DNA of 64,000 bases from an uncultured Pseudomonadales bacterium (GCA_964603945.1 CAZRWP010000003.1:6830-70829); one strand, 5' to 3'; counted from the stretch's first letter, positions 2,912 to 60,551 are shown. Numbers and translations are program-made. The notes: a model not told the origin generated them from the sequence alone.

Positions 2912-2943
2912 ACCGTTAGTATACCTGGAAGGTTGATGAAAGT

Positions 2944-3028
2944 AGGATCATCCTTGCGTTTAGTTTCCTTGAGAAGGATCATCCTAGGATGATCCTTCCA
3001 GGCAAGCGGAGGGGCAAGGATGATCCTT
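2944..3028. repeat. Family A palindromic intergenic repeat element, copy 1
   Basis: Element layout is AAGGATCATCCTTGC – 16-nt spacer – AAGGATCATCCTAGGATGATCCTTC – 16-nt spacer – GCAAGGATGATCCTT (copy 1 begins AGGAT). The three conserved modules are identical in the 4 copies (2944, 8729, 38571, 60466). Confidence 0.9.
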
Positions 3029-5389: not shown

Positions 5390-5580
5390 GTTTTTTGTGG
5401 AGGGGTAAATTTGGATCGGTTGATTTTGAGGGGACTGAGTTTGTGGGTTGATTTGGGCGAGTTGATTTTGAGGGGACTGAGTTTGTGGGTTGGCTGAATT
5501 TGAAGTCTGAATTTGGCTTGGCTGATTTAGGATTGGCTGATTTAGGGTTGACTAATTTAGGATTGGCTGATTAGGCTGTT
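5390..5580. repeat. G/T-rich tandem repeat tract (two ~42-bp units, then ~5 units of ~15 bp TTGGCTGATTTAGGA), with multiple G-runs
   Basis: GTTGATTTTGAGGGGACTGAGTTTGTGGGTTG occurs twice (5419 and 5461), followed by GGCTGATTTAGGATTGGCTGATTTAGGGTTGACTAATTTAGGATTGGCTGATT; lies between the recF stop and the YjeF-C gene start. Confidence 0.85.
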
Positions 5581-6641
5581 TTGGCTTGGTTGAGGATTTC
5601 TACATCTAGACTCACTTGTTCAGGCACTTCTTGCCCGGGGACAGTCGTAACAATTGCCTGAATTCCCTTGGTAGCTTTCAAAAGGTAGCGACAATTTTCA
5701 TCATCCAATTCTGAAAAAACATCATCTAGAAGCAAAATCGGATCTTCACCAAGTTTTTCCCGCAAATACTCCACTTCTCTTAATTTAAACCAAAGCAAGC
5801 TGAGGCGTTGTTCACCCCTTGAACCAAATGTAGTAATGTCGCGCCAATCGTCGTTGCGCTCAATCATAATTCGCCAGTCATCTTTATGCGGACCTACTAA
5901 TGTGTGTCCAGCCGCCACTTCCTGATTGGCATACTGACGCAGACGGGCTTCAGAAATTATGGAGTGATCATACTCAAGCTGATATTTTTCACGAATCCCC
6001 GGATCAAGCTGGAGCCAGTTGAGATAAGTTTGGCGCTGATCATGAAGGTAGGTGCCGTTTTGGATTAGCAATCTATCCCAGTAAAAAAAGTCCTGACGAG
6101 TGGCTTCATGGTCGCGTAGTTGAAGGATTAGCTTGTTGCGGCGGCGCAGAGCTTGCTCATACTGCGTGAGCGCACGACGGTATTTGGGATCCGTTTGAGT
6201 GAGAATATCGTCCAGGAGCTCGCGGCGTGCCGCTGGCCCCACCTGAAAAATCAACATATCCTCTGGCGTGAACAGCACAGTCGCCATCTCGCCGACAATG
6301 TCGGCGCGCCGCTTCCCTACCCCGTTAATTTTGTAGGTGCGTCGGGCAGTTTTCTTGCCTTGCAGTTGGCCGTGAGTCAGGACTTGCTCCAGCTCCACCT
6401 TCTCACCGCTCTCATGAAGAGAGGTCGATTTGAGGCGCGCCAGGTCAGCTTGCCATTCAATCAGCTCCTCGGTTTTGCCCGTGCGCCAACTTTTACCGGT
6501 AGACAATAAGCGAATCGCTTCGATTAAATTAGATTTACCAGAACCATTGGGCGCAACAAAAACATTGAGGCCCGGCTTGAACTGCCAGACCTGTTCCTCA
6601 ATTGATCGAAAATGCTGAAGCCACAGCCCTTTAATAAGCAT
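5571..6641 (-). CDS. recF: DNA replication and repair protein RecF
   Basis: Walker A PNGSGKSNLIEAI and N-terminal MLIKGLWLQHFRS. Start chosen at the internal Met (6641); the ORF track start at 6680 lies inside the inverted repeat of the adjacent element. Confidence 0.85.
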   Translation of the reverse strand: MLIKGLWLQHFRSIEEQVWQFKPGLNVFVAPNGSGKSNLIEAIRLLSTGKSWRTGKTEELIEWQADLARLKSTSLHESGEKVELEQVLTHGQLQGKKTARRTYKINGVGKRRADIVGEMATVLFTPEDMLIFQVGPAARRELLDDILTQTDPKYRRALTQYEQALRRRNKLILQLRDHEATRQDFFYWDRLLIQNGTYLHDQRQTYLNWLQLDPGIREKYQLEYDHSIISEARLRQYANQEVAAGHTLVGPHKDDWRIMIERNDDWRDITTFGSRGEQRLSLLWFKLREVEYLREKLGEDPILLLDDVFSELDDENCRYLLKATKGIQAIVTTVPGQEVPEQVSLDVEILNQAKTA

Positions 6642-6665
6642 CTGGGCATAAGATATCACACCTGG

Positions 6666-6851
6666 CATTGTTCGCCTCAATCTGGATATAACAGCTATGC
6701 CCAGATCACACCCTTGTCTTTTATTAGTTTTTAGACCCTAAACTTGCCCTAATTTAACCAAAAAAACTAACAAAAAATCTTGAAATATTAGAATTTTGAC
6801 AAGGGTTCAATCTGGAGATAATCACTATATCCAGATTGAGGCGAACTTGTT
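6666..6851. mobile_element. Family C MITE-like element, ~185 bp with ~48-bp imperfect terminal inverted repeats
   Basis: Left arm TTCGCCTCAATCTGGATATAACAGCTATGCCCAGATCACACCCTTGTC and right arm GACAAGGGTTCAATCTGGAGATAATCACTATATCCAGATTGAGGCGAA (ends perfect for 20 bp) flank an AT-rich ~80-bp core. Confidence 0.7.
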
Positions 6852-8635
6852 TAACGCTTAAGCACGGCCATGAAAGCCGATTGCGGAATCTGCACCTGTC
6901 CGATTTCTTTCATGCGCTGCTTGCCGGCCTTCTGCTTTTTGAGCAGTTTTTCGCGTCGGGTTTTGTCGCCACCATATAGCTTGGCGGTCACATCTTTACG
7001 GTAGGACTTAACGGTTTCCCGGGCGATAATCTTGCCACCGATGGCGGCTTGGATCGGGATCTCAAATTGCTGGCGGGGAATTGTTTCTTTGAGTCGCTTC
7101 GTGATGGCGCGTGCAATCCTATCAGCTTGTTCGCGGACCACGATTTGCGACAAAGCCTCTACTTCTTCGCCATGAACCATAATGTTTAATTTAACGGCGC
7201 TTACGGACTCGTAGCCGGTAATGACATATTCCAAAGAGGCAAAACCGGAGGAAACCGACTTCAGTTGATCATGGAAATTCACAATTAGCTCCATTAAGGG
7301 AATTTTGAATACGGCTTTTACGCGGGTGCCGACATCAGCAACTTCCTGCAAGCGGCCGCGATGATCTTCAACTAACTGCATAACCGTGCCCAAATACTGG
7401 CGAGGCGTAAAGATCGTGGCCTTAGTGATTGGCTCACGCAGTTCTAGAACCTGACTGGGATCCGGATATTCACTGGCATGATGAATTGTTTCAATTTCAT
7501 GATTGGTCAACTCTACTTCGTAAGGCACCGATGGCGCGGTTGCCACTAGATCTAAATCGAATTCTCGCTCCAGGCGCTCTTGAACAATTTCTGCATGCAA
7601 AACTCCTAAAAAGCCGACCCTCATGCCATTTCCCAGGGCAGTTGAGTGAGTACCGGTGAATTGTAAGGCCGCGTCATGCAGGCGCAGTTTGTTAATCGCT
7701 TCTTGAAGCAATATAAATTCATCACCGTTGGTTGGATACAAATCCAAATAGACCATTGGTTGAGGAATCTTGTAGCCCGGCAGTGGTTTTACCTTATCCG
7801 CGTTGGAAGCCTGGGTGATGGTGTCGCCAACCTGCACCATGGCGACATCCTTGAGTCCGGTAGCAATATAGCCAACTTCCCCAGCCTTGAGCGACTCAAC
7901 CGAACGGCGGTCTGGGCCAAAAAAACCAATTTCGGTGGGGGAAAATTTGTGATGATTGGCCAAGAGGGAGAGAGGCGCGCGCCGCAGTTCGCCTTCGATG
8001 ACCCGCACGTAAGCTATCACGCCCTGATGGACATCATAAAGCGAGGTGAAAACCAGGGCGCGCGCCGCCTGGTCCACCGGCTCTGGCGCCTCAGGAATTT
8101 TATCGACTATCACTTCAAGTAGGCGGTCAACATTGAGGCCTGACTTAGCTGACACCTCAACCATATCGCTTTCATCAAAGCCAAATGTCTCCATTAGTTC
8201 TAGCGTCACACTTTCCACGTCGGCGGCCGGCAGATCAATCTTGTTAACAACCGGAATAACTTTTAGGTTTAGCGCCTTAGCTTTTTCATAATTAGCCAGC
8301 GTTTGGGCTTGAATACCTTGAGTCGCATCAACCACCAACAAGACTCCCTCGGCGGCGGCCAGCGAACGCGACACTTCGTAACTAAAGTCAACATGTCCTG
8401 GTGTATCAATTAAATTTAACTGATATCGCTTATTTGTCCGAGGATCCTGCCAATTCATGCGAACCGGCGCCATCTTAATAGTGATGCCGCGCTCCTGTTC
8501 AATCGGATTTGAATCCATTAGGCGCTCGGAAAATTCACGTACGCCAATCGTGCTGGTCGCCTGCAACAGGCGATCCGTCAGCGTCGTTTTGCCATGATCA
8601 ATATGAGCGATAATCGAAAAGTTACGGATTGACAT
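6851..8635 (-). CDS. lepA: Elongation factor 4 (LepA)
   Basis: MSIRNFSIIAHIDHGKTTLTDRLL G-domain and 594-aa LepA layout. Confidence 0.95.
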   Translation of the reverse strand: MSIRNFSIIAHIDHGKTTLTDRLLQATSTIGVREFSERLMDSNPIEQERGITIKMAPVRMNWQDPRTNKRYQLNLIDTPGHVDFSYEVSRSLAAAEGVLLVVDATQGIQAQTLANYEKAKALNLKVIPVVNKIDLPAADVESVTLELMETFGFDESDMVEVSAKSGLNVDRLLEVIVDKIPEAPEPVDQAARALVFTSLYDVHQGVIAYVRVIEGELRRAPLSLLANHHKFSPTEIGFFGPDRRSVESLKAGEVGYIATGLKDVAMVQVGDTITQASNADKVKPLPGYKIPQPMVYLDLYPTNGDEFILLQEAINKLRLHDAALQFTGTHSTALGNGMRVGFLGVLHAEIVQERLEREFDLDLVATAPSVPYEVELTNHEIETIHHASEYPDPSQVLELREPITKATIFTPRQYLGTVMQLVEDHRGRLQEVADVGTRVKAVFKIPLMELIVNFHDQLKSVSSGFASLEYVITGYESVSAVKLNIMVHGEEVEALSQIVVREQADRIARAITKRLKETIPRQQFEIPIQAAIGGKIIARETVKSYRKDVTAKLYGGDKTRREKLLKKQKAGKQRMKEIGQVQIPQSAFMAVLKR

Positions 8636-8728
8636 GATTTGCTTGATATTCTTTTAGTTTTTCCCGATATTTATATTAATACTTCCAGAATCACCGATTA
8701 TACCTTGAGTAATGATTATGAGATAACA

Positions 8729-8814
8729 AAGGATCATCCTTGCGCTTGGTTTCCTCAAGAAGGATCATCCTAGGATGATCCTTCCAGGCAAAAGGAGGGG
8801 CAAGGATGATCCTT
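8729..8814. repeat. Family A palindromic intergenic repeat element, copy 2
   Basis: Same three conserved modules as copy 1; lies between the divergent lepA and pilin-like genes. Confidence 0.9.
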
Positions 8815-8837
8815 GTCCATTATTATGACGCGAATGA

Positions 8838-9293
8838 ATGATACAATTTCCGCAGACTATGACTTTGTCAAAATTCATCCGCCGATCAACTTTAACCGCA
8901 ACTGCCTTAACTTCATTGCTAACTGCCTCGCCTGCTTGGGCGCAAGGCGCTTGGGAACAGGGTCGCTGTGTTACTACGGTTCAAATGGGCGAGAGTGCAA
9001 ATGCTGTAACAAAAGAAGTCGCCACCTTTAGAGGAATTGAGTGCTTGCTCGCCAATGTTTTAAATGTGGCCGTCACTTTTGTTGGTCTAGCCGCTTTTGT
9101 CATGATTATTTATGGTGCCTTTTTATATTTAACCAGCGGCGGCAGTAGCAAGGGCACTGAGGCCGGCAAGCAAGCCCTGACTTACGCCATCATTGGTATT
9201 GTCGTGGCTTTAATGGCCTTCTGGATACTCAATCTTATTGCTACTTTCACCGGTGTCAGCGGCATTTTAAACTTTAGTTTGTCTCTAGATTGA
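8838..9293 (+). CDS. VirB2/TrbC-like type IV secretion pilin-like small membrane protein (inferred)
   Basis: Sec-type signal peptide ending AWA|QG, then two hydrophobic helices separated by the short loop TSGGSSKGTEAGKQ; this topology and size are typical of T4SS pilins. No family-specific motif verified. Confidence 0.35.
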   Translation: MIQFPQTMTLSKFIRRSTLTATALTSLLTASPAWAQGAWEQGRCVTTVQMGESANAVTKEVATFRGIECLLANVLNVAVTFVGLAAFVMIIYGAFLYLTSGGSSKGTEAGKQALTYAIIGIVVALMAFWILNLIATFTGVSGILNFSLSLD

Positions 9294-9365
9294 GACTTAA
9301 ATTAATCAGCCATTGTCCACCTCGCTCTCTTGTGTCTCTCGAGATTTCACGTACAATAGTTTTAC

Positions 9366-11252
9366 ATGTACCGGTGGCTATTTAAGACCATTTCCTTTTT
9401 ATTGGCCGTCACTTGGCTGGCGACAAATTTGCTAACTCCGGTGGCAGTTTTGGCACAGGCTGATCCAGAAGACGATGAAACAACTGAAATCGGAGGCGCC
9501 ACCTTCAGTCGAGATGACTTTGAAGCCGCCATCAACTCACCTACTCCTAACCTGGCAAATACAACTGCTTATGTATTAACCACGATCAGTGTAATGTTGG
9601 TAAATTCAGTTAGCCCATCAAAGTTGGTGCAAAACCCAGATGGCGCAGCAATACCAGGAAGTACCCACTACGCCTCCTCCACTCCAAGAACTCTCGACAA
9701 CGCTCTTAATAATGGAGGTTTAATAGGCGGTGTCGCTTTTCTAACCGCCGAGTTGGTTCGCAATCCTCCAGCTTCTGGTTCAGAATACATCGCATACATC
9801 ATGCACGAATCTCCACTGATTCCGCAAACAGCTTACGCTCAGGGGTTTGGAGTTGGCTTTGGCGCTCTAAGTCCTATTCTTAGTACTTGGGCGGCTTTTA
9901 GAGATGTAGCTTACTTTTTATTAACTCTGATTTTCTTGACGATTGGTATTTTGATTATTTTCCGCAAAAAAGTCAGTGGCAATGTAGCCGTAACGGTGCA
10001 AAGTGCCCTCCCCCGTCTGATTATTACCTTAATCTTAATTACTTTTTCCTACGCTATTGCCGGCTTCATTGTCGACCTGATGTTCTGGGCTATTTATTTT
10101 GTGGTGATAATTTTTAGTAGTTTACTGAATGAACCAATAGATTTTAAAATCGCCAGCGACCCTACACTACGAGAATTTGCCCTAGACACCAATTTATTTA
10201 CCATTTTATTCCAATATGTAATTGCTGGAGGAGCCGGTAATGCGGCAAATGCTCTATCAACAATAGTAATGAAAGCTTTAACGGGCATTCCTTTCCTTGG
10301 TGGAGATCCAGGATCGTGGCTAGGAAGTATTCTTAGTTTTGGTTTAGACATTTTATTTACCCTAATAATTGGTGTCGCCATCCTAATTCAATCATTCCGA
10401 GTCTTCTTTCAGCTTCTAATGTCCTACGCTGGATTTGTAATTAATGTCGTACTGAGCCCATTTGTCCTTCTCCAAGGTGCAATCCCTGGCAAAGACCCCT
10501 TTATGAAGTGGTTAAAAAATCTAATTGCCGGCTTAGCTCCCTTTGTCGTGGTGGTGTTTATGCTATTTATGGCCTTCACCTTGTCTGGTAAAAACACTAA
10601 GCCTGGTGTTGGCTATGATGTAAACAACCCCAGCACAGCAGGCCTGCGACTACCACTTCTATTAACTGGTGATGTCTCAGGCAATGGCATCATGGGACTC
10701 TTAGCCATTGGCTTTATCATGCTATTACCAGAAGCCGTAAATATGACCAAGAAAGCTCTCGGCGCCTCCGGCGGACCGCTTGATGAGTTCAAAGACAAAG
10801 CTGTAGGGAACTTCAAGCAAGGTTGGGAAGGAAATAAGTACGTTCCAGGAGCTAAAACAGGTCTGCGCAATATGGCCGCTGGAGCTGGCGCCGGCATGGC
10901 GGGTGGTTTCGTAGCAGGCGACAAATTGTCTCAAGATCGTAGTCGACCGGTCAGGTGGGCTGCAAAAGGTGCCGGTGCTATACTTGGTACTGGCCTCGGC
11001 GGGGCATTCGGAGGAGCATACACAGCTGCCTCTCCGCCTTTAAAAGTGATTAATGAAAAGATTTTAAAACCAGTAACGCCAGTTGTTTCTCGCGTCAACA
11101 AAGAAGGCGTTAGGGTTAATGAGTTTATTGAGCAACAAAGAGCAAGAAAGCAGCTTGAGAGAGACGGCGAGCGACAGGAGGCTTCCACAAACAGAACCAG
11201 TAGTGGTGAGCCCGTTAATCCTTCACAGGGAGGTGGGGCTGTTGCTCCATAA
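9366..11252 (+). CDS. VirB6/TrbL-like polytopic membrane protein (inferred)
   Basis: 628 aa; N-terminal signal/TM, ~140-aa extracytoplasmic loop, 6 or more TM helices, and a Gly/Ala-rich hydrophilic C-terminal tail. AT-rich coding sequence. Confidence 0.35.
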   Translation: MYRWLFKTISFLLAVTWLATNLLTPVAVLAQADPEDDETTEIGGATFSRDDFEAAINSPTPNLANTTAYVLTTISVMLVNSVSPSKLVQNPDGAAIPGSTHYASSTPRTLDNALNNGGLIGGVAFLTAELVRNPPASGSEYIAYIMHESPLIPQTAYAQGFGVGFGALSPILSTWAAFRDVAYFLLTLIFLTIGILIIFRKKVSGNVAVTVQSALPRLIITLILITFSYAIAGFIVDLMFWAIYFVVIIFSSLLNEPIDFKIASDPTLREFALDTNLFTILFQYVIAGGAGNAANALSTIVMKALTGIPFLGGDPGSWLGSILSFGLDILFTLIIGVAILIQSFRVFFQLLMSYAGFVINVVLSPFVLLQGAIPGKDPFMKWLKNLIAGLAPFVVVVFMLFMAFTLSGKNTKPGVGYDVNNPSTAGLRLPLLLTGDVSGNGIMGLLAIGFIMLLPEAVNMTKKALGASGGPLDEFKDKAVGNFKQGWEGNKYVPGAKTGLRNMAAGAGAGMAGGFVAGDKLSQDRSRPVRWAAKGAGAILGTGLGGAFGGAYTAASPPLKVINEKILKPVTPVVSRVNKEGVRVNEFIEQQRARKQLERDGERQEASTNRTSSGEPVNPSQGGGAVAP

Positions 11253-11288
11253 CCATTTAATTAAATTTGAAACTTTTTTATAACCTAA

Positions 11289-14200
11289 TTATTTTTCTGA
11301 CTGAAACAAACCCATTAAGGTCTTTCCTGAATTAAATAGCTCTCCCCATGTGTATTTAACACCCATAAGCTTGAGAAGTTTCATAAATTGAGCCTTGGTA
11401 AATAAGTTTTGTCCCTCGATGTGTGGAAGTTCTTTCTCAACTGAGTCAATCCAGCCCTCTTTGTGAGCAACTCTCAATATTTTCTTAAATCCAGTCACCA
11501 GGGGACCCACCAGCACACCATCAAAATTACGATTACGATACATCTCTCGAATTTCAGCAGAAACTATAATACCAAGTAATAGATAGTCTTCTGGACTTAA
11601 CTTTTCGATAACATCCCCCTCATACGAAGCCATTGTCATCACTTGTGTAAATTTATGCTTAACTAACAAATCTTTTGGATTAACTATTGGACCACCATTT
11701 GGCGGAACAACTGTAAATACCATTTCTTTAACCCCATCATCTGCTACATGAAGAGCTGAAGAATTATACCTCTTGTCCCTCTTCATCTCATCTGGTATCC
11801 AATAAGCCAGATCTACTGGTTCCATTTGAATAAACAAGTGAGAGCGTACGAGTAGTTCTTTATAATCACCATCTCCAGATGAATTTGTAGCACCTGGTTT
11901 TTTCACAATTATTCTTACAAACTGGCCGGATTTCAAAGCTTCCTCTTTAGACACACCCGGATTAATTGGTTCTCCGGCTTCATCATACATCATCCAGTAA
12001 GTGTCAATTTTTCTGATCGTATCAATTACTTCAGCTGCAAATCGCCCATTAACTTTAGCCGGCTGATTCGTTTTAAAATCCAAAGATCCCAACTCAAGCA
12101 GATTTCCTGATGAAAAACCATTCATGCAGCGCTTAGCCAAGGCAAACATATGCTTCATATGTCCAAGCCATTGATAAGTAGCATCCGGAGGTAATTGATC
12201 AAATGGAATGTCAGCCCAACTACGAGCATGAGTAATATGATCTTTAAGAGTTCTTACTACACCATGCCTATTTTTTAGGACAAAATAGTCAAAAAAGGTT
12301 AAAAAGAAGGATTGCATTAAAATTAGAGACTCATTAATAGAACCAGTTTTTTCATCTCTTTCACCATTTAGATACTTCAAGGCGGCAAGAATCGGATTCA
12401 TCAAAATCTGCATTCTTTCAACACCTTCTGGAGATCCAAAGTTTTGTTTTTTTCCTTTTAGTCTCGCATCTTGAAAGTCTGCTTCTAATCCCAACTCACA
12501 CATCCACTCAGCAAAGTACATGGCAATTGTTGAAAACGGATACATTGCCTCCATTGCACTTGAGGATAGTGCTTCTGCGACTCCTTTCTTAATAGATGGA
12601 TCAAATTGATCATTAAAAGCTTTGGCTTCTTCATTGTTGAGACTTTCATTTTTAGCATCTAAGAATTGGTTTAAAGTACCCATAACGCTAGAACCATTTG
12701 GTTCCGATAATCCCCTTGACTCAATCTCAGTAATTTTCCTTTCCACTGACTCACGAATCTTCTCAGGCAATAATTGTGTAATAACTAAATTTCTTCTTGC
12801 CAAAGCCCTGGCAAAAGAATCTGATATCACGCTTGAAGTAGGTAAAACAGACCTCTTTAAACGCTTAGTTACCAATTGTTTAACACTATGAGTACCAAAC
12901 CTGAAACCCGGTCTTAAGCTCGAAGGAATACTAGGTTCAATTATTGTATATTGATCTGAATAAGGAATTGCCATGTCAGGTGGTAAGCCCTGATCATTAC
13001 GAATTTTTTGTTCACGCTTTTCTAGTTCATCAACACTGTTATATCCCCTCCCTCTAAGAAATACTTGTTGCAAAGCTATGCGTATTTGCTCGCCGATTGG
13101 CAAATTATCAGGTCCAAACTCTGACCCTTCTACCCAGCGATTTTGACTCTCAATATGGAGGGGCAATAAGAATCTATCATCAGCAAGTTCTGCCAACAAT
13201 TTCCAAACAATTGGATGAAACCATTTATTCTCTCTTGCGTCAGAAGAATAAAATTCTTCATACTGTTCAACAGTTTTTGACCCCATTGCCCTAGTACCAT
13301 CGGTTGCTAGAAGATCAAGCATCCACAAATACCCATTTAGCATTTCATCTTTAGCTATAAGTGCCGCTCCTCTAAATTCTGGGTCAACTTGCAAGTCATA
13401 TGCTTCAATAACTTGCTTAAGCGTCATTTGCTGAGATGGAATGGCGCTAGCATCGACAGTTTCTGTAAGTGCAAATGCTATACCTCCAATAGGGGGTATA
13501 ACACCTCTTTCAGGATCTCTCTGTCCAAAAGCCTTCTCCATTGCTAATGAAATAAGATGTCTATTAATAACTTCATACCGCTCAACCGGATCTTTTATTT
13601 CTAAAATATACTCAGCCCCATTTTGAACCAGAATATTTATAGCCGGATTGCTCATTTCGCGGTTTTTGCGCTCTTTTAACTTTGCCGCTTCTGCGTCTAA
13701 TTTATCTGCTGCTTTTTTAGCAGCTCTTTCCGCGCGCTTAGCAAGAAGATCTGTTCTACGTTCATCGTAAAGTGCAGCCTTAATTGCTTCTATATCATTG
13801 GTATGAGCGGCATTATTGATAATCTCTAACAGCTGACGTTCTAAATTTAACTTATCTACATCATCAATAATTTTCTGTAGTCTTACCTCCAAGTCTGAAT
13901 CTGTTATTCCAACGAGATCATTGGCTGCCCTCTGCTTTTCCAGGGACTTTTTTTCTGTGTCAAAGGTCAGTAGCTGATCATCAATCTCATTAATTCTTGA
14001 CTCTGTGAGAGAAATGATTATCCTAACTTGATTGAGTTGTTCAGCCTGATCAATTGTCCTGTTTTCTATGTCAACAATTGTTTGTCGCAATAGTTCATCA
14101 ATTTCCTTAAATTCAGGACTTAAATCTATGCTTCCTGCAGCTTTTCTCTTTGGTATGAACTTATCAGCCCACTCTTCAAATGATCTATTGACAAATAAAT

Positions 14201-14591
14201 CTTCATCGTTCATTAGTTCGAGCAACTGATTTAAAAGTTTTTCCTCAATCAACATTTTTTCTTCTTCATCCTTAGAAATTCCAGGAACCGCCTTTTCGAC
14301 CGAAATGTCTTTTATTCGCTGTCTAGTGGTTTCCCTGATTGTATTTAGCCTTACTAATTGATTATTTTCACTTAAAGCTCCTGACCTGGCCTGGTGAATT
14401 AATAATGCTAAATTATCAGTAATTATTCTAAAAGGCGTTCCTGCCTTCAAAATACCTGGGTGAAAATCAGGTGAAGCAATTCCACTTGCATCATAAGCAG
14501 CTTTATTCATTGCGATATCGCGCAGAAATTTAAATGAGGGGTTTATACTTTCAATCTGCGACATAATCAAGTTTATTTTAACATCAATCAA
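11289..14591 (-). CDS. Large (1100 aa) coiled-coil-rich hypothetical protein; no recognisable catalytic motif
   Basis: Long uninterrupted ORF 6 nt downstream of the 435-aa gene on the same strand; central charged heptad-like segments (RAERAAKKAADKLDAEAAKLKERK); no Walker A and no TM. Very AT-rich codon usage. Confidence 0.6.
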   Translation of the reverse strand: MIDVKINLIMSQIESINPSFKFLRDIAMNKAAYDASGIASPDFHPGILKAGTPFRIITDNLALLIHQARSGALSENNQLVRLNTIRETTRQRIKDISVEKAVPGISKDEEEKMLIEEKLLNQLLELMNDEDLFVNRSFEEWADKFIPKRKAAGSIDLSPEFKEIDELLRQTIVDIENRTIDQAEQLNQVRIIISLTESRINEIDDQLLTFDTEKKSLEKQRAANDLVGITDSDLEVRLQKIIDDVDKLNLERQLLEIINNAAHTNDIEAIKAALYDERRTDLLAKRAERAAKKAADKLDAEAAKLKERKNREMSNPAINILVQNGAEYILEIKDPVERYEVINRHLISLAMEKAFGQRDPERGVIPPIGGIAFALTETVDASAIPSQQMTLKQVIEAYDLQVDPEFRGAALIAKDEMLNGYLWMLDLLATDGTRAMGSKTVEQYEEFYSSDARENKWFHPIVWKLLAELADDRFLLPLHIESQNRWVEGSEFGPDNLPIGEQIRIALQQVFLRGRGYNSVDELEKREQKIRNDQGLPPDMAIPYSDQYTIIEPSIPSSLRPGFRFGTHSVKQLVTKRLKRSVLPTSSVISDSFARALARRNLVITQLLPEKIRESVERKITEIESRGLSEPNGSSVMGTLNQFLDAKNESLNNEEAKAFNDQFDPSIKKGVAEALSSSAMEAMYPFSTIAMYFAEWMCELGLEADFQDARLKGKKQNFGSPEGVERMQILMNPILAALKYLNGERDEKTGSINESLILMQSFFLTFFDYFVLKNRHGVVRTLKDHITHARSWADIPFDQLPPDATYQWLGHMKHMFALAKRCMNGFSSGNLLELGSLDFKTNQPAKVNGRFAAEVIDTIRKIDTYWMMYDEAGEPINPGVSKEEALKSGQFVRIIVKKPGATNSSGDGDYKELLVRSHLFIQMEPVDLAYWIPDEMKRDKRYNSSALHVADDGVKEMVFTVVPPNGGPIVNPKDLLVKHKFTQVMTMASYEGDVIEKLSPEDYLLLGIIVSAEIREMYRNRNFDGVLVGPLVTGFKKILRVAHKEGWIDSVEKELPHIEGQNLFTKAQFMKLLKLMGVKYTWGELFNSGKTLMGLFQSEK

Positions 14592-14597
14592 CCAACA

Positions 14598-15905
14598 CTA
14601 ATCTTCTTTCTTAAAAGTAACTCTCGCGGACTGTTCCAAAAGATACTGAATTACTTCAGCAGACAAATTTATTGATTTTTTGTCAGGCAAATCCGATTTT
14701 TTGCCTTCAAGATTTTTTTTGATTGCATAAGCAACTCTTTCCTTAATGTCCTCAATAAGTTTGACTTTTTCTTCAGGATCCTCTGCCTTTTTAGGAGCGG
14801 ATAGAAGATCTCGTACTTCAGTCTGCAAGTTGATCTCTTCAATTTTCTTTTCTTCTTTAAACAAATAAAGGTAAAACTTTTTTTTATCTTCTTCACTTTC
14901 CATTGAGGCTTTCAAGAATTCCATTGTTGTGTCTTCCAAATCATTTTTGGCTTCAACTCCATCTCTATATAACCTGTCTCCGTAGCCAAATCCTGATTTA
15001 TCAACTGCAAATATTAATGAAATAAAATCACTTACACCGGGAATTCCCTCCGACCAGTCATCAACGCCTTTTTGCATATCTTTAAATGAAGAAAAAAATG
15101 AGGCTTGCTTTTCACTATCCCATTTTTCTGACAACCCCTGTCGAGCCACACTATCCTCAATCTGCAGATAAACTTCTAGCAAATGAGATGTCGTCTCATA
15201 CTTAGATAAAAACCAGGCTGAGTGCTCTGAAAACAATTTTTTATCATTTTGAAGCTCCTCCCAAGAAAGTTGATCGTCTTGAGAGCCTGTTAAAAACAGT
15301 CTTTCGAGCTCGGCATGATCTTGAAAGCTTGTTAAAAAAGCCAAAGTATCTAAAGTTTGGTTTTTAAATTTTTCAACCTCAATATCCTCGGTTTCAAGCA
15401 GCATTGTTTTTGTTTGTTCTTGAATAATGGAAGAAATGCGATATTTTAATCTTCGAATGTTGTCTATTTTTTTATTGACATCCTCAGTTTTTCCTGAATC
15501 ATCACTTTTTTCAACCTTTTGAAGATCGCTTTTAAATCTACTCTCAACTTTGTCTAAAAGCTGAGTAAATTCTGCTAGAGGGGGATTATCGCCGTCAAAG
15601 TGCTCTTTTAATAAGAGATTAACACGCCTTTCCAGTTTAAATTCTTCATCATCTCTTTTTATTCCCTCAACTAATTGCTCAATATTAAAATTCCCTACAA
15701 ATTGCTCTGAATTTTCTTCCAAATCCTGGTTCTGAGGAAGATTGTTTTCATTTTCAGACCCAGTCGCTAAGTTGTCAGCACCTTTATCATTTCCATCATT
15801 CTGATTTTCAGGCTGAACCCGAGTTTCCTCTGCTTTTGCTCTAATGTCATCCATCGACATATTTTCACCAGCTATTAAAATCGAAGATTGATTGACTTCT
15901 GCCAT
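14598..15905 (-). CDS. Acidic, low-complexity/coiled-coil hypothetical protein (435 aa), first gene of a two-gene operon divergent from dnaA
   Basis: The ORF starts 217 bp from the dnaA start on the opposite strand; the N-terminal 70 aa are Asn/Glu/Asp/Gln-rich; AT-rich. Confidence 0.55.
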   Translation of the reverse strand: MAEVNQSSILIAGENMSMDDIRAKAEETRVQPENQNDGNDKGADNLATGSENENNLPQNQDLEENSEQFVGNFNIEQLVEGIKRDDEEFKLERRVNLLLKEHFDGDNPPLAEFTQLLDKVESRFKSDLQKVEKSDDSGKTEDVNKKIDNIRRLKYRISSIIQEQTKTMLLETEDIEVEKFKNQTLDTLAFLTSFQDHAELERLFLTGSQDDQLSWEELQNDKKLFSEHSAWFLSKYETTSHLLEVYLQIEDSVARQGLSEKWDSEKQASFFSSFKDMQKGVDDWSEGIPGVSDFISLIFAVDKSGFGYGDRLYRDGVEAKNDLEDTTMEFLKASMESEEDKKKFYLYLFKEEKKIEEINLQTEVRDLLSAPKKAEDPEEKVKLIEDIKERVAYAIKKNLEGKKSDLPDKKSINLSAEVIQYLLEQSARVTFKKED

Positions 15906-15986
15906 ACTTACACAGATTAGTATGGTTTTTGCTTATATGCAACTTTAATAACCGAGATTTTCTCCCCCTTGCCAACCCAACCCGAT

Positions 15987-16006
15987 TGTGGATATATTGT
16001 GGATAA
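15987..16006. promoter_or_regulatory. Two tandem DnaA boxes upstream of dnaA (TGTGGATAT, TGTGGATAA)
   Basis: TGTGGATAA is the exact reverse complement of the consensus TTATCCACA; likely dnaA autoregulation/origin flank. Confidence 0.6.
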
Positions 16007-16122
16007 CTTTACATGGAGGAGCTGAGGGTTTATCTGGAGGAGTGAGTCGCTAAATTCACTCACCTTTTCAACCGGCGACCTCAAGTAATTTTAAAACCAG
16101 CCTGCCTGAATTAGAAATTATT

Positions 16123-17760
16123 ATGACAACTACTGAGCCTCAACTTGTATGGTCCGCAGTCTTACGTGATCTATCCAAATCAATGTCCTCCTCTAGTTTT
16201 TCAACCTGGATTAAGCCATTAAAGATTGAGTCTATTGAGGCAGTGGGAGATGGTCACGCCATAGTTAAAATTTCAGCGGCCAGTCCATATGTGGCTGAGC
16301 AAGCCGAAATGCGCTGTTATGCTCAGTTAAAACAGATCATTGATCGCTCTACGGGGCGTGCTTGCGATTTGACTTTTGATATTAGTGGTGGGGTGGGAAA
16401 TACCGCTGTAAAAGATACTCTGTCAAATGAGAATGGTTCTCAGTCAAATACAATAGATGTTCAGCCAATTGAGGAAGAAGATGATAATCACTCCAATTTT
16501 ATTAACCGCTCTAAAGCTGACAATAAAACCCATCCAACTTATCAAAACGCGCAAATTAATCCCAATATTAGTCATCAAACCGGCCCCAGTAATTCGCCGC
16601 TTTTTAGCCCGGACTCCAGTAGACCATCAAGACCTGGCTCTAAAAAATCCAGCGCAACTAGCGACGCCCCTTCTCTATTTAGTCAGGCTCAAATCCGCAT
16701 TCCCACTGTTGACCGCCACAAGCTGGCGGCCCAAAAAGCCCATCTGCGCGAGGATTATACCTTTGACAGTTTTGCCGTTTCGGGCTCTAATGAAATGGCT
16801 CATGCGGCCGCCAGCGCCGTGGCGGCTAGCCCCGGGCAAGTTTATAACCCGCTGTTTTTGTGGGGCGGAGTTGGTGTTGGCAAAACCCATTTAATGCAGG
16901 CGATTGGCAATACTATTCTCAAAAATGATCCTGACACACCCCTTACTTATTGCATGGGTGAAGAATTTTTAAATGAGATCATTGGGGCAATTCGTAGTAA
17001 GCGTACTTTGGAATTTAAGGAGAAATATCGCCGGCTTAAAGTTTTACTAATTGATGATATTCAGTTTATTGCCGGCAAAGATACGGCTCAGGAAGAGTTC
17101 TTTCACACTTTTAACGCCATTACCCGAAGTGGTGGGCAGGTAATTATGACCTCTGACCGACCACCTTATGAAATTCATCCTTTAGAGGACCGTTTAAGAA
17201 GCCGGTTTGAGGGCGGCCTAACAATTGATATTCAGCAACCGACTTTTGAGCTTAGAACAGCAATTTTACTTATCAAATCGCAGAAAATGGGACTTGATCT
17301 ACCAATGAATTTGGCTCAAATTATTGCCTCGGAGGTGGAGAGCACCCGTAAATTGGAAGGTGTAATTTACAAACTCCACAGCGCTCACCGTTTTCAAAAC
17401 AAACCACTTGATGAACATTTAGTCAGGGAAGTTTTAGGCAATGAAAGCCGGCCGGTAATTTCAAGAAAAAAACTTAAACCATCTGCTATTTTACGGGCGG
17501 TAACGTCACATTTCCACGTCAGCGCCAGCACTCTCCGCGGCCCATCTCGCAAGAAAGACTACGTCACCGCCCGCCACATCGCTATGTACTTACTCAAATC
17601 GGAATTAGATGTTCCCTACGCAGAAATCGGCCATTCCTTTGGCGGGCGCGACCACACTTCAATTATGCACGCCGTTTCTAAAATTGAGAATGAAATGGCC
17701 GATAGCTCAATTATCAATCAGCATGTCAATGCGATCCGGTCTTCGCTGTCGGCAATGTAG
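16123..17760 (+). CDS. dnaA: Chromosomal replication initiator DnaA
   Basis: AAA+ Walker A GGVGVGKTHL, the C-terminal DNA-binding domain and typical position before dnaN. Confidence 0.95.
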   Translation: MTTTEPQLVWSAVLRDLSKSMSSSSFSTWIKPLKIESIEAVGDGHAIVKISAASPYVAEQAEMRCYAQLKQIIDRSTGRACDLTFDISGGVGNTAVKDTLSNENGSQSNTIDVQPIEEEDDNHSNFINRSKADNKTHPTYQNAQINPNISHQTGPSNSPLFSPDSSRPSRPGSKKSSATSDAPSLFSQAQIRIPTVDRHKLAAQKAHLREDYTFDSFAVSGSNEMAHAAASAVAASPGQVYNPLFLWGGVGVGKTHLMQAIGNTILKNDPDTPLTYCMGEEFLNEIIGAIRSKRTLEFKEKYRRLKVLLIDDIQFIAGKDTAQEEFFHTFNAITRSGGQVIMTSDRPPYEIHPLEDRLRSRFEGGLTIDIQQPTFELRTAILLIKSQKMGLDLPMNLAQIIASEVESTRKLEGVIYKLHSAHRFQNKPLDEHLVREVLGNESRPVISRKKLKPSAILRAVTSHFHVSASTLRGPSRKKDYVTARHIAMYLLKSELDVPYAEIGHSFGGRDHTSIMHAVSKIENEMADSSIINQHVNAIRSSLSAM

Positions 17761-17879: not shown

Positions 17880-18160
17880 CAACTCGGAGGATAACTAATT
17901 TTACAAAAAAGAAAGGGTGTCCAGATAAAAAATCGCATTTTACTCAATTGCCATAAGTTATTTTTCCACAACTTATGCACAATTGTGAATAAATTCGGTG
18001 GATATCCTGTGAGTAACCGCGGTAAAACTTATCCACTTCTCCCCATCAGCCATCATCCAAGAAAAAGTTATTCGCTTTTTAAATAAGTTATCCCTACTCC
18101 TCCACAAAAGTATCCACTGTCTGATAGAGTACACTCACACACGAAACAAAAACGAACTAG
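17880..18160. promoter_or_regulatory. Putative oriC in the dnaA–dnaN spacer: AT-rich tract plus a cluster of DnaA-box-like 9-mers
   Basis: TTTTCCACA (17962), GTGGATATC (17998), TTATCCAC (18029), AGTTATCCC (18087) and AGTATCCAC (18111), plus an AT-rich stretch at 17880–17960. Confidence 0.55.
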
Positions 18161-38570: not shown

Positions 38571-38656
38571 AAGGATCATCCTTGCCGTTAGTTTCCTCAA
38601 GAAGGATCATCCTAGGATGATCCTTCCAGGCAAGCGGATGGGCAAGGATGATCCTT
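38571..38656. repeat. Family A palindromic intergenic repeat element, copy 3
   Basis: Same three conserved modules as copy 1; lies upstream of nrdR. Confidence 0.9.
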
Positions 38657-50299: not shown

Positions 50300-51799
<1,500 letters not shown>

Positions 51800-53233: not shown

Positions 53234-53307
53234 GAGAGTATAGCTCAGTTGGTTAGAGCGCAGTCCTGATAAGACTGAGGCCCCTGGTTCGAGTCCAGGT
53301 ACTCTCA
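53234..53307 (+). tRNA. tRNA-Ile (anticodon GAT)
   Basis: Acceptor GAGAGTA/TACTCTC, D-arm AGCTCAGTTGGTTAGAGC, anticodon loop CTGATAA, T-arm GGTTCGAGTCC; no encoded CCA. Confidence 0.9.
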
Positions 53308-53527
53308 CATCCTTCTTTCCCCTTTTGCTCCACAAGGAAGGCTAAAGCCTTGGCTTTCGTCGCAAAAGGCAAAAGAAGTTTCTAGGTTTATTTCTGAGTT
53401 GGTCTAGAGTCCAATTGGCTAGAATGCTAAAAACATTTCTGCTTTTTTGTATGTCTCATAAAATATGGTATTACTAAATTATTAAAGCGTAGCGGCAATC
53501 TCCCCTGATATAATAACCTTCTTAGCG

Positions 53528-53603
53528 GGCCCATAGCTCAGTTGGCTAGAGCGCTTCATTTGCAATGAAGAGGTCAGGAGTTCGAGTCTCCTTGGGTCCA
53601 CCA
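53528..53603 (+). tRNA. tRNA-Ala (anticodon TGC) with encoded CCA
   Basis: Acceptor GGGCCCA/TGGGTCC with the G3:U70 Ala identity pair, anticodon loop TTTGCAA, T-arm GAGTTCGAGTCTC, 3' CCA. Confidence 0.9.
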
Positions 53604-58007: not shown

Positions 58008-58309
58008 AAGTTTGCAGATGTACCAATAGCATTATATCTGAACAAAATTGTTTTTGTGATTTATTAGTGGTTATTTGCTGATTGTATCTGTCTCATTTAT
58101 TTGCTAACTTTTAATTTGCTGTGGAACATAGTGAAATTCTATGACTGTGCCGCAACGGTGATTCCAAACACGGAAAGTCCGATCTTCAGCAAAAGAGAAA
58201 TCTTGACGAGCATCGAGGAATTATTGTCGGCATATATCTGAAAAATTAGCCGAAAATAATTTAAACAAACGACCTTTATTTTGGACAAACCAAAAATAGG
58301 TCAACCGAT

Positions 58310-58331
58310 GCTCCCTTAAGGGAGCTTTTTT
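58310..58331 (+). terminator. Orphan intrinsic terminator on the + strand (GCTCCC-TTAA-GGGAGC followed by TTTTTTGTTT)
   Basis: Perfect 6-bp GC-rich stem, 4-nt loop and T-tract; no + strand CDS upstream in the 300-bp gap. Confidence 0.55.
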
Positions 58332-58395
58332 GTTTACCACAGCCGATAATTGTTTTGGCTTGAGGGTGTTTTCCAAAAAGTCAGGAGGAATTAAT

Positions 58396-59181
58396 ATGGC
58401 TGGACTTGAAAGTCGAGGTGCCATGAACATGAGGCGAAGGCCAACTGAAATGGCCAAGAGCATTGGAAGTCAGCCGTCGGAGATAAGAAAGAGTTGGCAA
58501 GCTTTAAGAGGGCAAGGTTTGGGGCCGGAATCGGTGGTGCAAGACTTTGAGTCGATAGGCTCAGTTGGAAATTTTGAAAGTCTGCAAAGTCTGATTCAGC
58601 TTGAGCCAGCTTTGGCGACCGGCTTAAATCAATTGCTGGGTCAATTAATTGGCAATGTAATTGAGCAAACAACGGCCAGCGAGTTAATTAGTGCTTTTGG
58701 TGTTCCGGAGTCTTTATTGGCGATGCCAGTATTTTTAGAGTTGCAGGTGATGGAAGTGGAGTCACAAAGAGCGGTGCGTCAGTCAGCTGAAATAGTCAGA
58801 TATCAATGGCAGAAGATGGTGAACCAGATAATTGCTCAGCTAAAGTTATTTCTGGCGGAAAGAATAAACTCACTTGAACAAAAAAGGCAGGCGCATCAGC
58901 ATGCTTGGCGAGACTCGCTCATGGCGGCAGGAAACACTCAGGAATTAAATGGCACGATGGCCACTTTGGATTCTCGTTTTATGTCCGAAATTTCTCAGAT
59001 AGATCAGCAAATTAAGCAGTTGAGGCAGACACTGGGTAATATTGAACAGAAAGTCCAAAAGTATGAATCCACTTGGCTGGCGCCGACGGTACTTAGGGCG
59101 AGCGAGCAGAGGGTTGGGCCGACAATTGTTTTAAACTCGGCGGAAAGGCTTGGAGCGGGCGGAGAAAGTTTAGCTGTCTAG
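58396..59181 (+). CDS. hypothetical protein (coiled-coil-rich)
   Basis: Start chosen at the ATG preceded by a strong SD AGGAGG (58383–58388) rather than the ORF-track start at 58330. Confidence 0.45.
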   Translation: MAGLESRGAMNMRRRPTEMAKSIGSQPSEIRKSWQALRGQGLGPESVVQDFESIGSVGNFESLQSLIQLEPALATGLNQLLGQLIGNVIEQTTASELISAFGVPESLLAMPVFLELQVMEVESQRAVRQSAEIVRYQWQKMVNQIIAQLKLFLAERINSLEQKRQAHQHAWRDSLMAAGNTQELNGTMATLDSRFMSEISQIDQQIKQLRQTLGNIEQKVQKYESTWLAPTVLRASEQRVGPTIVLNSAERLGAGGESLAV

Positions 59182-60465: not shown

Positions 60466-60551
60466 AAGGATCATCCTTGCCCCTTGTCTAGTCTGGAAGG
60501 ATCATCCTAGGATGATCCTTCTCGAGGAAAATAAAGGCAAGGATGATCCTT
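60466..60551. repeat. Family A palindromic intergenic repeat element, copy 4 (inverted orientation relative to copies 1–3)
   Basis: The modules are identical, and the spacers match copies 1–3 only after reverse complementing. Confidence 0.9.

Follow-up and report, generated by a model that had tools for sequence, protein, structure and literature searches.

Is a low-GC block lying directly upstream of dnaA a piece of inserted foreign DNA, or an old part of the chromosome whose content is exchanged? This question is raised by a stretch of 64,000 nucleotides, hereafter the window, deposited under the title uncultured Pseudomonadales bacterium (GCA_964603945.1, CAZRWP010000003.1:6830-70829) and probably derived from a chromosome of the Patescibacteria, which are ultrasmall bacteria. 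Between lepA and dnaA, the window carries a gene for a type IV secretion system (T4SS) pilin, a gene for a VirB6-like membrane protein and two AT-rich genes on the minus strand, called here the large and the small gene. A preliminary description had taken the VirB6-like gene and the two minus-strand genes for foreign DNA. The present analysis points to another reading, which we regard as probable: the block is a two-gene cassette of very high variability, part of a Patescibacteria T4SS-like locus that in this Woesebacteria-like clade occupies an ancestral slot between lepA and dnaA, and the cassette is replaced there by recombination. Comparison sequences are cited by L numbers, and coordinates are those of the window unless a comparison sequence is named.

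Conservation of the lepA-dnaA slot

Gene order of the window was found to be kept in seven GTDB relatives (L003-L007, L033 and L036), whose DnaA identity is about 56-69%. The common order is lepA, pilin, VirB6-like gene, two minus-strand genes (of 900-1100 and 270-470 aa, in this sequence) and dnaA, with one or two additional genes before dnaA in some of them. The nearest GTDB relative (73% DnaA identity) is a single metagenome-assembled genome (MAG) split over contigs L002 and L059, which repeat the order of the window from the DNA ligase gene through the small gene. The same order is also found in L063 (a 286-kb JGI contig), L066, L068 and L069. In nearly all syntenic relatives both cassette genes are AT-shifted compared to their neighbours. 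Adjacency of lepA and dnaA in other strains had been suggested as the mark of an empty site, and shared order and composition as the mark of ancestral content. Among about a dozen relatives with this synteny no empty site was observed; the slot is filled in all of them and lepA never adjoins dnaA. As relatives share gene order and compositional dip and show no empty site, the slot, its architecture and its composition are ancestral. No integrase, recombinase or relaxase domain was found in any open reading frame (ORF) of the region 8.8-15.9 kb. No tRNA target is adjacent, the nearest tRNA being at 53 kb, and flanking direct repeats are only short ones at chance level.

Divergence and replacement of the cassette

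Sequence divergence is much more rapid in the cassette than in the neighbouring genes, and between conspecific strains the cassette is replaced outright. Divergence among relatives was expressed as BLAST bit-score ratio, in percent of the self-score. DnaA showed ratios of 50-84, and the VirB6-like protein 30-48 within the clade and 16-21 to the distant L058, while the ratios were 0-12 for the large and 0-5 for the small protein. The similarity of large proteins is incongruent with DnaA relationships, because those of L033 and L004 are unrelated (ratio 1) despite DnaA ratios of 80-84, while those of L006 and L007 align end to end at DnaA ratios of only about 60. On the basis of the large protein the cassettes were grouped in classes, of which class B includes L003, L004 and L067, and class C is L066. 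A hidden Markov model (HMM) of the large-protein family of the window did not detect the large proteins of L003, L004, L066 and L067, and the two tested by hhalign (L003 and L004) were also unmatched to this family. The large proteins of classes B and C are devoid of the conserved C-terminal domain of the window family.

Outright replacement was observed between the window and L066. The Fic, NnrD, RecF, LepA, DnaA, DnaN and RnpA proteins of L066 are 98.3-99.7% identical to those of the window, while its pilin (92% aa identity) and its VirB6-like protein (79%) are diverged alleles. No similarity to the window pair was seen in the two cassette genes of L066, which encode 846 and 466 aa (GC 0.374 and 0.356). 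Nucleotide identity to L066 is mostly 98-100% up to about 8600, 84-94% at 8600-9800 and 67-84% at 9800-10831; no alignment is obtained at 10832-15957, and from 15958 the identity is mostly 94-100%. At the right junction (15,957/15,958) the change is abrupt; this junction is placed 11 bp upstream from the -35 hexamer of a promoter-like site of dnaA. The left breakpoint is situated within the 3' end of the VirB6-like gene, at the end of the membrane core (about 10,831). Alignment of L067, a different species, ends at 10831 as that of L066 does, and alignment of L059 ends at 10855. Variation in the cassette is accompanied by variation in the VirB6-like tail. Near-identical flanks, non-homologous content and sharp junctions fit an allelic replacement locus. 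The suggestion that the content had been acquired was thus correct in one sense: the block is no stray insertion, but its content is horizontally replaced, as the non-homologous pair of L066 between flanks of 98-100% identity demonstrates.

The cassette of the window itself was found in L001, with 98.9% identity over 5.9 kb including the left junction. The 63 differences between the two are mostly confined to five patches (9116-9188, 9374-9431, 12606-12658, 12954-13064 and 14034-14051), one stretch of 111 bp alone holding 24 of them; the patch that falls in the pilin gene is almost wholly synonymous. This clustering suggests short-tract mosaic recombination between alleles, or assembly from a mixture of strains.

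The same data bear on a purely vertical history without any exchange of the pair, in which very fast divergence in situ, driven by AT-biased mutation and by selection that is either relaxed or diversifying, has erased homology. An HMM of eight syntenic small partners, which joins class A and class B cassettes, matches the small protein of the window at residues 272-433 (E=1.7e-14), and judged by this profile the small proteins belong to a single, strongly diverged family, in line with such a history. Composition that tracks the host and an architecture that is constant everywhere also speak for it. However, point mutation cannot explain the difference between the window and L066, since 5.1 kb are unalignable with abrupt junctions between near-identical flanks. 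The incongruence of large proteins with DnaA (L033/L004) and the clustered substitutions of L001, suggestive of recombination, also argue against it, and as the whole explanation vertical divergence is improbable.

Linkage of the cassette with T4SS genes

Eighty metagenome loci encoding VirB6-like homologues (27-48% identity) were surveyed, 47 of which have at least 3.5 kb of sequence downstream. In 45 of these 47 the next gene after the VirB6-like one is a convergent ORF of 700 aa or more. GC content at third codon positions (GC3) of the convergent ORF is below that of the VirB6-like gene in 41 of the 45 loci (mean difference -0.082, Wilcoxon p=1.6e-8). GC3 of the one gene is correlated with that of the other (r=0.78). 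The AT shift is therefore systematic and follows the local genome, and because it tracks the composition of the host genome it is not the mark of a recent AT-rich donor. Of 54 loci, 43 have a pilin homologue upstream and just 2 have dnaA as a neighbour. The linkage of the cassette is with T4SS genes, not with dnaA. VirB4, TraC-like, PrgI-like or CHAP-hydrolase genes adjoin the cassette unit in L058, L062, L106, L124, L130 and L137, and VirB4/TraC-like genes specifically stand beside homologous cassettes in L058, L106, L124, L130 and L137. The large proteins are diverse; 62 of them formed 20 BLAST clusters. A conserved small ORF of 58-64 aa was noticed between the VirB6-like and the large gene in L058 (13749-13925), L062 (13557-13751), L063 (13236-13430) and L064 (3654-3848). 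In the window these two genes are separated by 36 bp and the small ORF is not present.

The pilin of the window matches PF18895 (T4SS_pilin) with 32.2 bits against a cut-off of 26.6 (E=1.2e-7). The VirB6-like protein possesses 8 hydrophobic segments and has at least 270 homologues, all unnamed. No VirB6-like match was obtained from Pfam and NCBIfam, even at E<=5 with ten orthologues scanned. Its AlphaFold2 (AF2) model, built from 64 homologues, reached a predicted local distance difference test (pLDDT) score of 73 for the whole chain and of about 90 for the membrane core, with values below 50 at residues 508-580; tblastn matches of relatives stop near residue 497. When the model was compared with the PDB by Foldseek, TrwI/VirB6 of R388 made up 6 of 7 and 7 of 8 best matches, five of them with probability 0.99-1.00, E 7e-3 to 4e-2 and template-modelling (TM) score 0.39-0.45. 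This match of a predicted structure weakly supports the label VirB6-like.

The two cassette proteins

Long helices occur in the N-terminal part of the large protein (about 660 aa), which is variable; the C-terminal domain that follows (about 400 aa) is conserved in the family. Its likely start is the ATG at 14564, giving 1091 aa instead of the 1100 aa counted from TTG, because M10 does not vary within the family and is also where an independent gene call, P0001, begins. Only 21 homologues were found among 1.84 billion representative proteins, and except one 99% identical copy they match only residues about 660-1100. A word-indexed homologue search returned nothing beyond the 99% identical copy, whether the query was the sequence alone or an alignment of 28 sequences. 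In the AF2 model (pLDDT 66.5) long N-terminal helices and two better-predicted α/β regions are seen; Foldseek searches of this model against PDB and BFVD gave coiled-coil noise only and no structural neighbour. D708, Y865, R916 and E1054 are invariant in the 22-sequence family alignment, in which no known motif was recognised, and W808, N848, S1011 and E1013 of the C-terminal domain are near-invariant. The four invariant residues might mark an active or binding site.

The small protein is acidic (22% Asp+Glu). No signal peptide, lipoprotein signal, transmembrane helix or Walker A motif was detected in either cassette protein, and both read as soluble. Neither had a significant match in Pfam, NCBIfam, PHROGs or PADLOC, and profile searches against PDB sequences gave no match at E<=1. 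Identification of the large protein as a relaxase or an ATPase was discarded, as it shows no Walker A motif and no family match. Compared with L001, the large gene has a ratio of nonsynonymous to synonymous polymorphism (pN/pS) of 0.17, which indicates that the cassette genes are functional and under purifying selection.

A hypervariable AT-rich two-gene unit of orphan proteins between conserved flanks is typical of defence islands, and a variable defence or toxin-antitoxin hotspot that merely neighbours the T4SS genes, functionally independent of them, was therefore weighed. Six cassette proteins of three classes were without significant match in PADLOC, Pfam and PHROG (the best PADLOC E-values, 0.009-0.037, are below significance), and no nuclease or ATPase motif was found. 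The large ORF is moreover convergent with the VirB6-like gene in 45 of 47 loci whatever the context, including within complete T4SS clusters. The chance of such a hotspot is rated as low as that of vertical divergence.

Base composition of the block

GC content of the window is 0.443, compared to 0.378 in the large and 0.353 in the small gene. GC3 is 0.29 in both minus-strand genes, the lowest of 46 ORFs, and the sliding GC profile falls to 0.35-0.40 between 11 and 16 kb. At four-fold-degenerate sites GC3 is 0.240 in the large and 0.277 in the small gene, about 3.4 and 2.9 standard deviations under the mean of 35 other genes of at least 150 codons (0.492 +/- 0.073, minimum 0.333). Codon-usage distance B from the rest of the window is 0.35 for the large and 0.33 for the small gene against 0.24 +/- 0.05 for other long genes (maximum 0.30). 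Observed GC of 0.379 and 0.353 stands against 0.437 and 0.404 expected from amino acid content and window codon usage. In the large gene about three quarters of the GC shortfall can be put down to the choice among synonymous codons, against about half in the small one; the remaining deficit of both comes from their Lys/Glu/Asn/Asp-rich amino acid content. The AT-richness first described for the two minus-strand genes is thus real, and the sliding-window and codon analyses proposed along with it bear it out, with the dip at 11-16 kb and the highest codon distances among long genes. It does not extend to the VirB6-like gene (9366-11252), whose GC of 0.458 is above the window mean and whose four-fold GC3 of 0.39 is in the normal range. 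This gene was excluded from the AT-rich block on account of its composition. As a consequence, the block of about 6.6 kb (9300-15905) shrinks to about 4.6 kb at 11,289-15,905.

Strongly atypical GC and codon usage, and content that differs between near-identical strains, are what would be expected of a recent foreign insertion, that is a genomic island from an AT-rich donor that entered between lepA and dnaA in this lineage. This explanation is largely refuted and very improbable. No empty site was found in about a dozen relatives, and the architecture recurs in 45 of 47 distant loci. Integrase, tRNA and att-like repeats are lacking, the GC3 of the cassette tracks that of the adjacent VirB6-like gene (r=0.78), and the small-protein family spans cassette classes. 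The integration of foreign DNA upstream of dnaA proposed in the preliminary description is therefore not upheld. A low-GC block by an origin can be an ancestral recombining slot, and low GC alone is no proof of insertion.

Proposed mechanism and points against it

A replaceable cassette of a T4SS-like locus would work as follows. The locus comprises a VirB2-like pilin gene, a VirB6-like gene and then a convergent operon for an acidic protein of about 435 aa and a soluble protein of about 1,100 aa. Exchange would take place by homologous recombination in the conserved flanks, with the lepA/pilin/VirB6 core on one side and the dnaA promoter on the other. Both proteins may act with the T4SS-like machine; the large one would most likely be a secreted substrate or a factor of host specificity, and the acidic one its partner, possibly a chaperone, adaptor or immunity-like protein. 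The conserved C-terminal domain may dock to the machine, and the variable N-terminal part may carry the function under diversifying selection. Such a two-part protein beside an acidic partner is similar in layout to effectors and adaptors of T4SS. AT bias could arise from weak codon selection in genes of fast turnover under AT-biased mutation. That the cassette encodes substrates or host-specificity determinants, docked perhaps through the co-varying VirB6 tail and acting with the N-terminal part on a host bacterium, is a tentative proposal made by analogy, and we consider it rather doubtful in this full form. As a candidate for that part of the T4SS-like system which varies and faces the host, the pair is concrete and open to test, as it is fixed beside the pilin and VirB6-like genes across the sampled loci and exchanged between near-identical strains. 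If it is a substrate or specificity module, swapping it from strain to strain would retune host range.

Several observations weigh against the view of a T4SS cassette exchanged by recombination. No VirB4 or other T4SS ATPase was found in the window (Pfam on large ORFs; tblastn with a VirB4 fragment of L058), so the link to a working T4SS machine comes from gene neighbourhood in other genomes. The structural match to VirB6 is weak (E 7e-3, TM 0.39-0.45, on a predicted model). Neither cassette protein has a family, PDB-sequence or fold match, and their role in the T4SS is one that we infer by analogy. Some AT shift is also seen in dnaN, rnpA and yidC (GC 0.39-0.41); the GC contrast on the right-hand side of the block is hence mainly against dnaA itself, and since the conserved dnaN and rnpA share the shift, the cause given for AT bias is the weakest step of the mechanism. 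All comparison sequences, L066 included, come from metagenome assemblies, and the right junction of the window was seen only in the window itself. An assembly artefact, in which chimeric metagenome contigs produce the cassette differences, could draw on that reliance on metagenome assemblies and on the clustered window-L001 mismatches, but is scarcely credible, as the left junction and cassette are independently reproduced in L001 (98.9%, 5.9 kb), the architecture recurs in more than 50 independent assemblies and all ORFs are intact.

Comparison with known systems

T4SS-like loci of Patescibacteria (CPR, candidate phyla radiation) are related to the monoderm conjugation machinery of the mating pair formation (MPF) type MPF-FATA (Quinonero-Coronel et al. 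2025, PMC12102498; Wang et al. 2023, PMC10633639). Their genes are commonly found close to dnaA, dnaN and rnpA in Microgenomatia and Paceibacteria; in Microgenomatia VirB6 is difficult to recognise, and these systems are without relaxases (PMC12102498). In Southlakia epibionticum, a Saccharibacterium and the only species examined in this respect, epibiotic growth depends on the T4SS-like system, and the role and substrates of the system are described as completely unknown (PMC10633639, PMC11665869). The window resembles such loci in its PF18895 pilin beside a polytopic VirB6-like protein, in its chromosomal position near dnaA, dnaN and rnpA, which is the tendency reported for them, and in lacking a relaxase. 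Like the VirB6 of Microgenomatia, its VirB6-like protein escapes sequence profiles (PMC12102498). It differs from them in that no virB4 was found within its 64 kb. Occurrence of T4SS genes near dnaA is already published; a fixed-position, hypervariable and AT-shifted gene pair and its strain-level swap are not described in the cited papers.

Conserved flanks around non-homologous or highly diverged alleles within a species are a feature shared with polymorphic cassette loci such as O-antigen and capsule clusters and the effector-immunity islands of type VI secretion systems (T6SS) and of the Xanthomonas/Stenotrophomonas T4SS (X-Tfe/X-Tfi). Persistently low GC and the two-gene unit are shared with these loci too. 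X-Tfe effectors carry a C-terminal XVIPCD secretion domain, and the large proteins of class A cassettes may be comparable, in that a conserved C-terminal domain is joined to a variable N-terminal part. The cassette has no homology to any known effector, toxin, immunity protein or XVIPCD domain, and its proteins have no signal peptide. With genomic islands and integrative and conjugative elements (ICEs) it has in common the atypical composition, the strain-variable content and the T4SS-related neighbours. Unlike these it lacks integrase, relaxase, att repeats, tRNA target and empty site, and its slot is ancestral. The variable hydrophilic C-terminal extension of the VirB6-like protein and the variable pilin recall the extended VirB6 and the variation of VirB2/VirB6 paralogues in Rickettsiales and Bartonella (PMC7648143, PMC12857230), a parallel that suggests host-interaction diversification of tail and pilin. 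Unlike in those bacteria, variability in the window is mostly in separate adjacent soluble genes and results from allelic replacement, not from paralogue expansion.

The dnaA promoter and the candidate origin

The block was correctly described as ending at the dnaA promoter region. The small gene starts at 15905 and dnaA at 16123, and the 217-bp spacer between them contains a promoter-like TTGCCA-18-TATATT at 15969-15998, which overlaps DnaA boxes at 15987-15995 and 15998-16006. Across the cassette swap this region is kept, with one mismatch in 165 bp compared to L066 and with identical promoter and DnaA boxes. Given this conservation, an effect on dnaA regulation, which had been considered possible, is not indicated on sequence grounds. 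A second cluster, with 4 of the 23 DnaA-box matches of the window within 76 bp (17962-18037) in the dnaA-dnaN spacer, makes it plausible that a replication origin adjoins the block.

An extra plus-strand gene of 600-670 aa was observed between the cassette and dnaA in L004 (7883-9862), L033 (7736-9757), L005 (7379-9220) and L007 (7864-9672). Its products in these four are 35-61% identical to one another and gave no match in Pfam and PHROG. L059 probably also carries such a gene, at 1-1776. A homologue was sought in the window and none was found; the gene is also absent from L003, L006, L036 and L066. From this patchy occurrence it follows that gene content just upstream of dnaA varies within the clade.

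Host and other features of the window

The features around the block are given in Table 1. Best matches of DnaA in the genome collection were Patescibacteria MAGs, the informative titles of which read Woesebacteria or Pacebacteria. Going by these titles, the window is probably a Woesebacteria-like Patescibacteria chromosome, probably of Microgenomatia. Many of the closest MAGs (L002-L006, L008-L011 and others) are titled 'uncultured Pseudomonadales bacterium', and their gene content and DnaA similarity point to Patescibacteria. These titles are probably placeholder or wrong taxonomy labels in the deposited records.

Table 1. Positions of the cassette, its flanks and nearby features in the window
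Feature	Position	Strand	Basis or remark
recF	5571-6680	minus	
lepA	6851-8635	minus	
Palindromic intergenic repeat element, 86 bp, four copies of 12-mer AAGGATCATCCT	8729-8814		
VirB2-like T4SS pilin gene, 151 aa, two hydrophobic helices	8838-9293	plus	PF18895 T4SS_pilin
VirB6-like polytopic membrane protein gene, 628 aa	9366-11252	plus	
VirB6-like conserved core, signal/transmembrane helix and about 7 transmembrane segments	9366-10831	plus	AF2 model, Foldseek, hydrophobic segments
VirB6-like hypervariable Gly/Ala-rich C-terminal tail; left end of replaced segment	10832-11252	plus	Alignment stops
Large soluble orphan gene, 1100 aa, AT-rich	11289-14591	minus	
Small acidic soluble gene, 435 aa, AT-rich; first gene of the two-gene unit	14598-15905	minus	
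Cassette-specific part of divergent intergenic region; right end of replaced segment	15906-15957		Unlike L066
Conserved dnaA promoter region	15958-16122	plus	Hexamers and DnaA boxes; conserved in L066
dnaA	16123-17760	plus	Bac_DnaA E=3e-62, Bac_DnaA_C E=2e-23; 98.9% aa identity to L066
Four DnaA boxes (<=1 mismatch), candidate oriC	17962-18037		dnaA-dnaN spacer
dnaN, rnpA, yidC, jag	3' of dnaA, in that order		

The palindromic element of about 86 bp has four copies in the window (2943-3028, 8729-8814, 38571-38656 and 60466-60551), all intergenic, and occurs in L066 too. Its near-palindromic 12-mer AAGGATCATCCT has 24 matches in the window against 0.38 expected, four in each element. The copy at 8729-8814 lies just within the left end of the strain-variable zone, where the interval 8601-8800 is already 84% identical to L066. 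The element could be a repeat of the repetitive extragenic palindrome or miniature inverted-repeat transposable element type (REP/MITE-like), an operator array or a bidirectional terminator.

Away from the block, no 23S rRNA gene was found anywhere in the 64-kb window, so the rRNA operon appears split. The 16S rRNA gene (50300-51798) is followed by 1.4 kb with two small ORFs and then by tRNA-Ile and tRNA-Ala (53234-53603). The gene at 58330-59181 is preceded by an AdoCbl-II (cobalamin) riboswitch at 58107-58196, which with 47 bits exceeds the gathering score.

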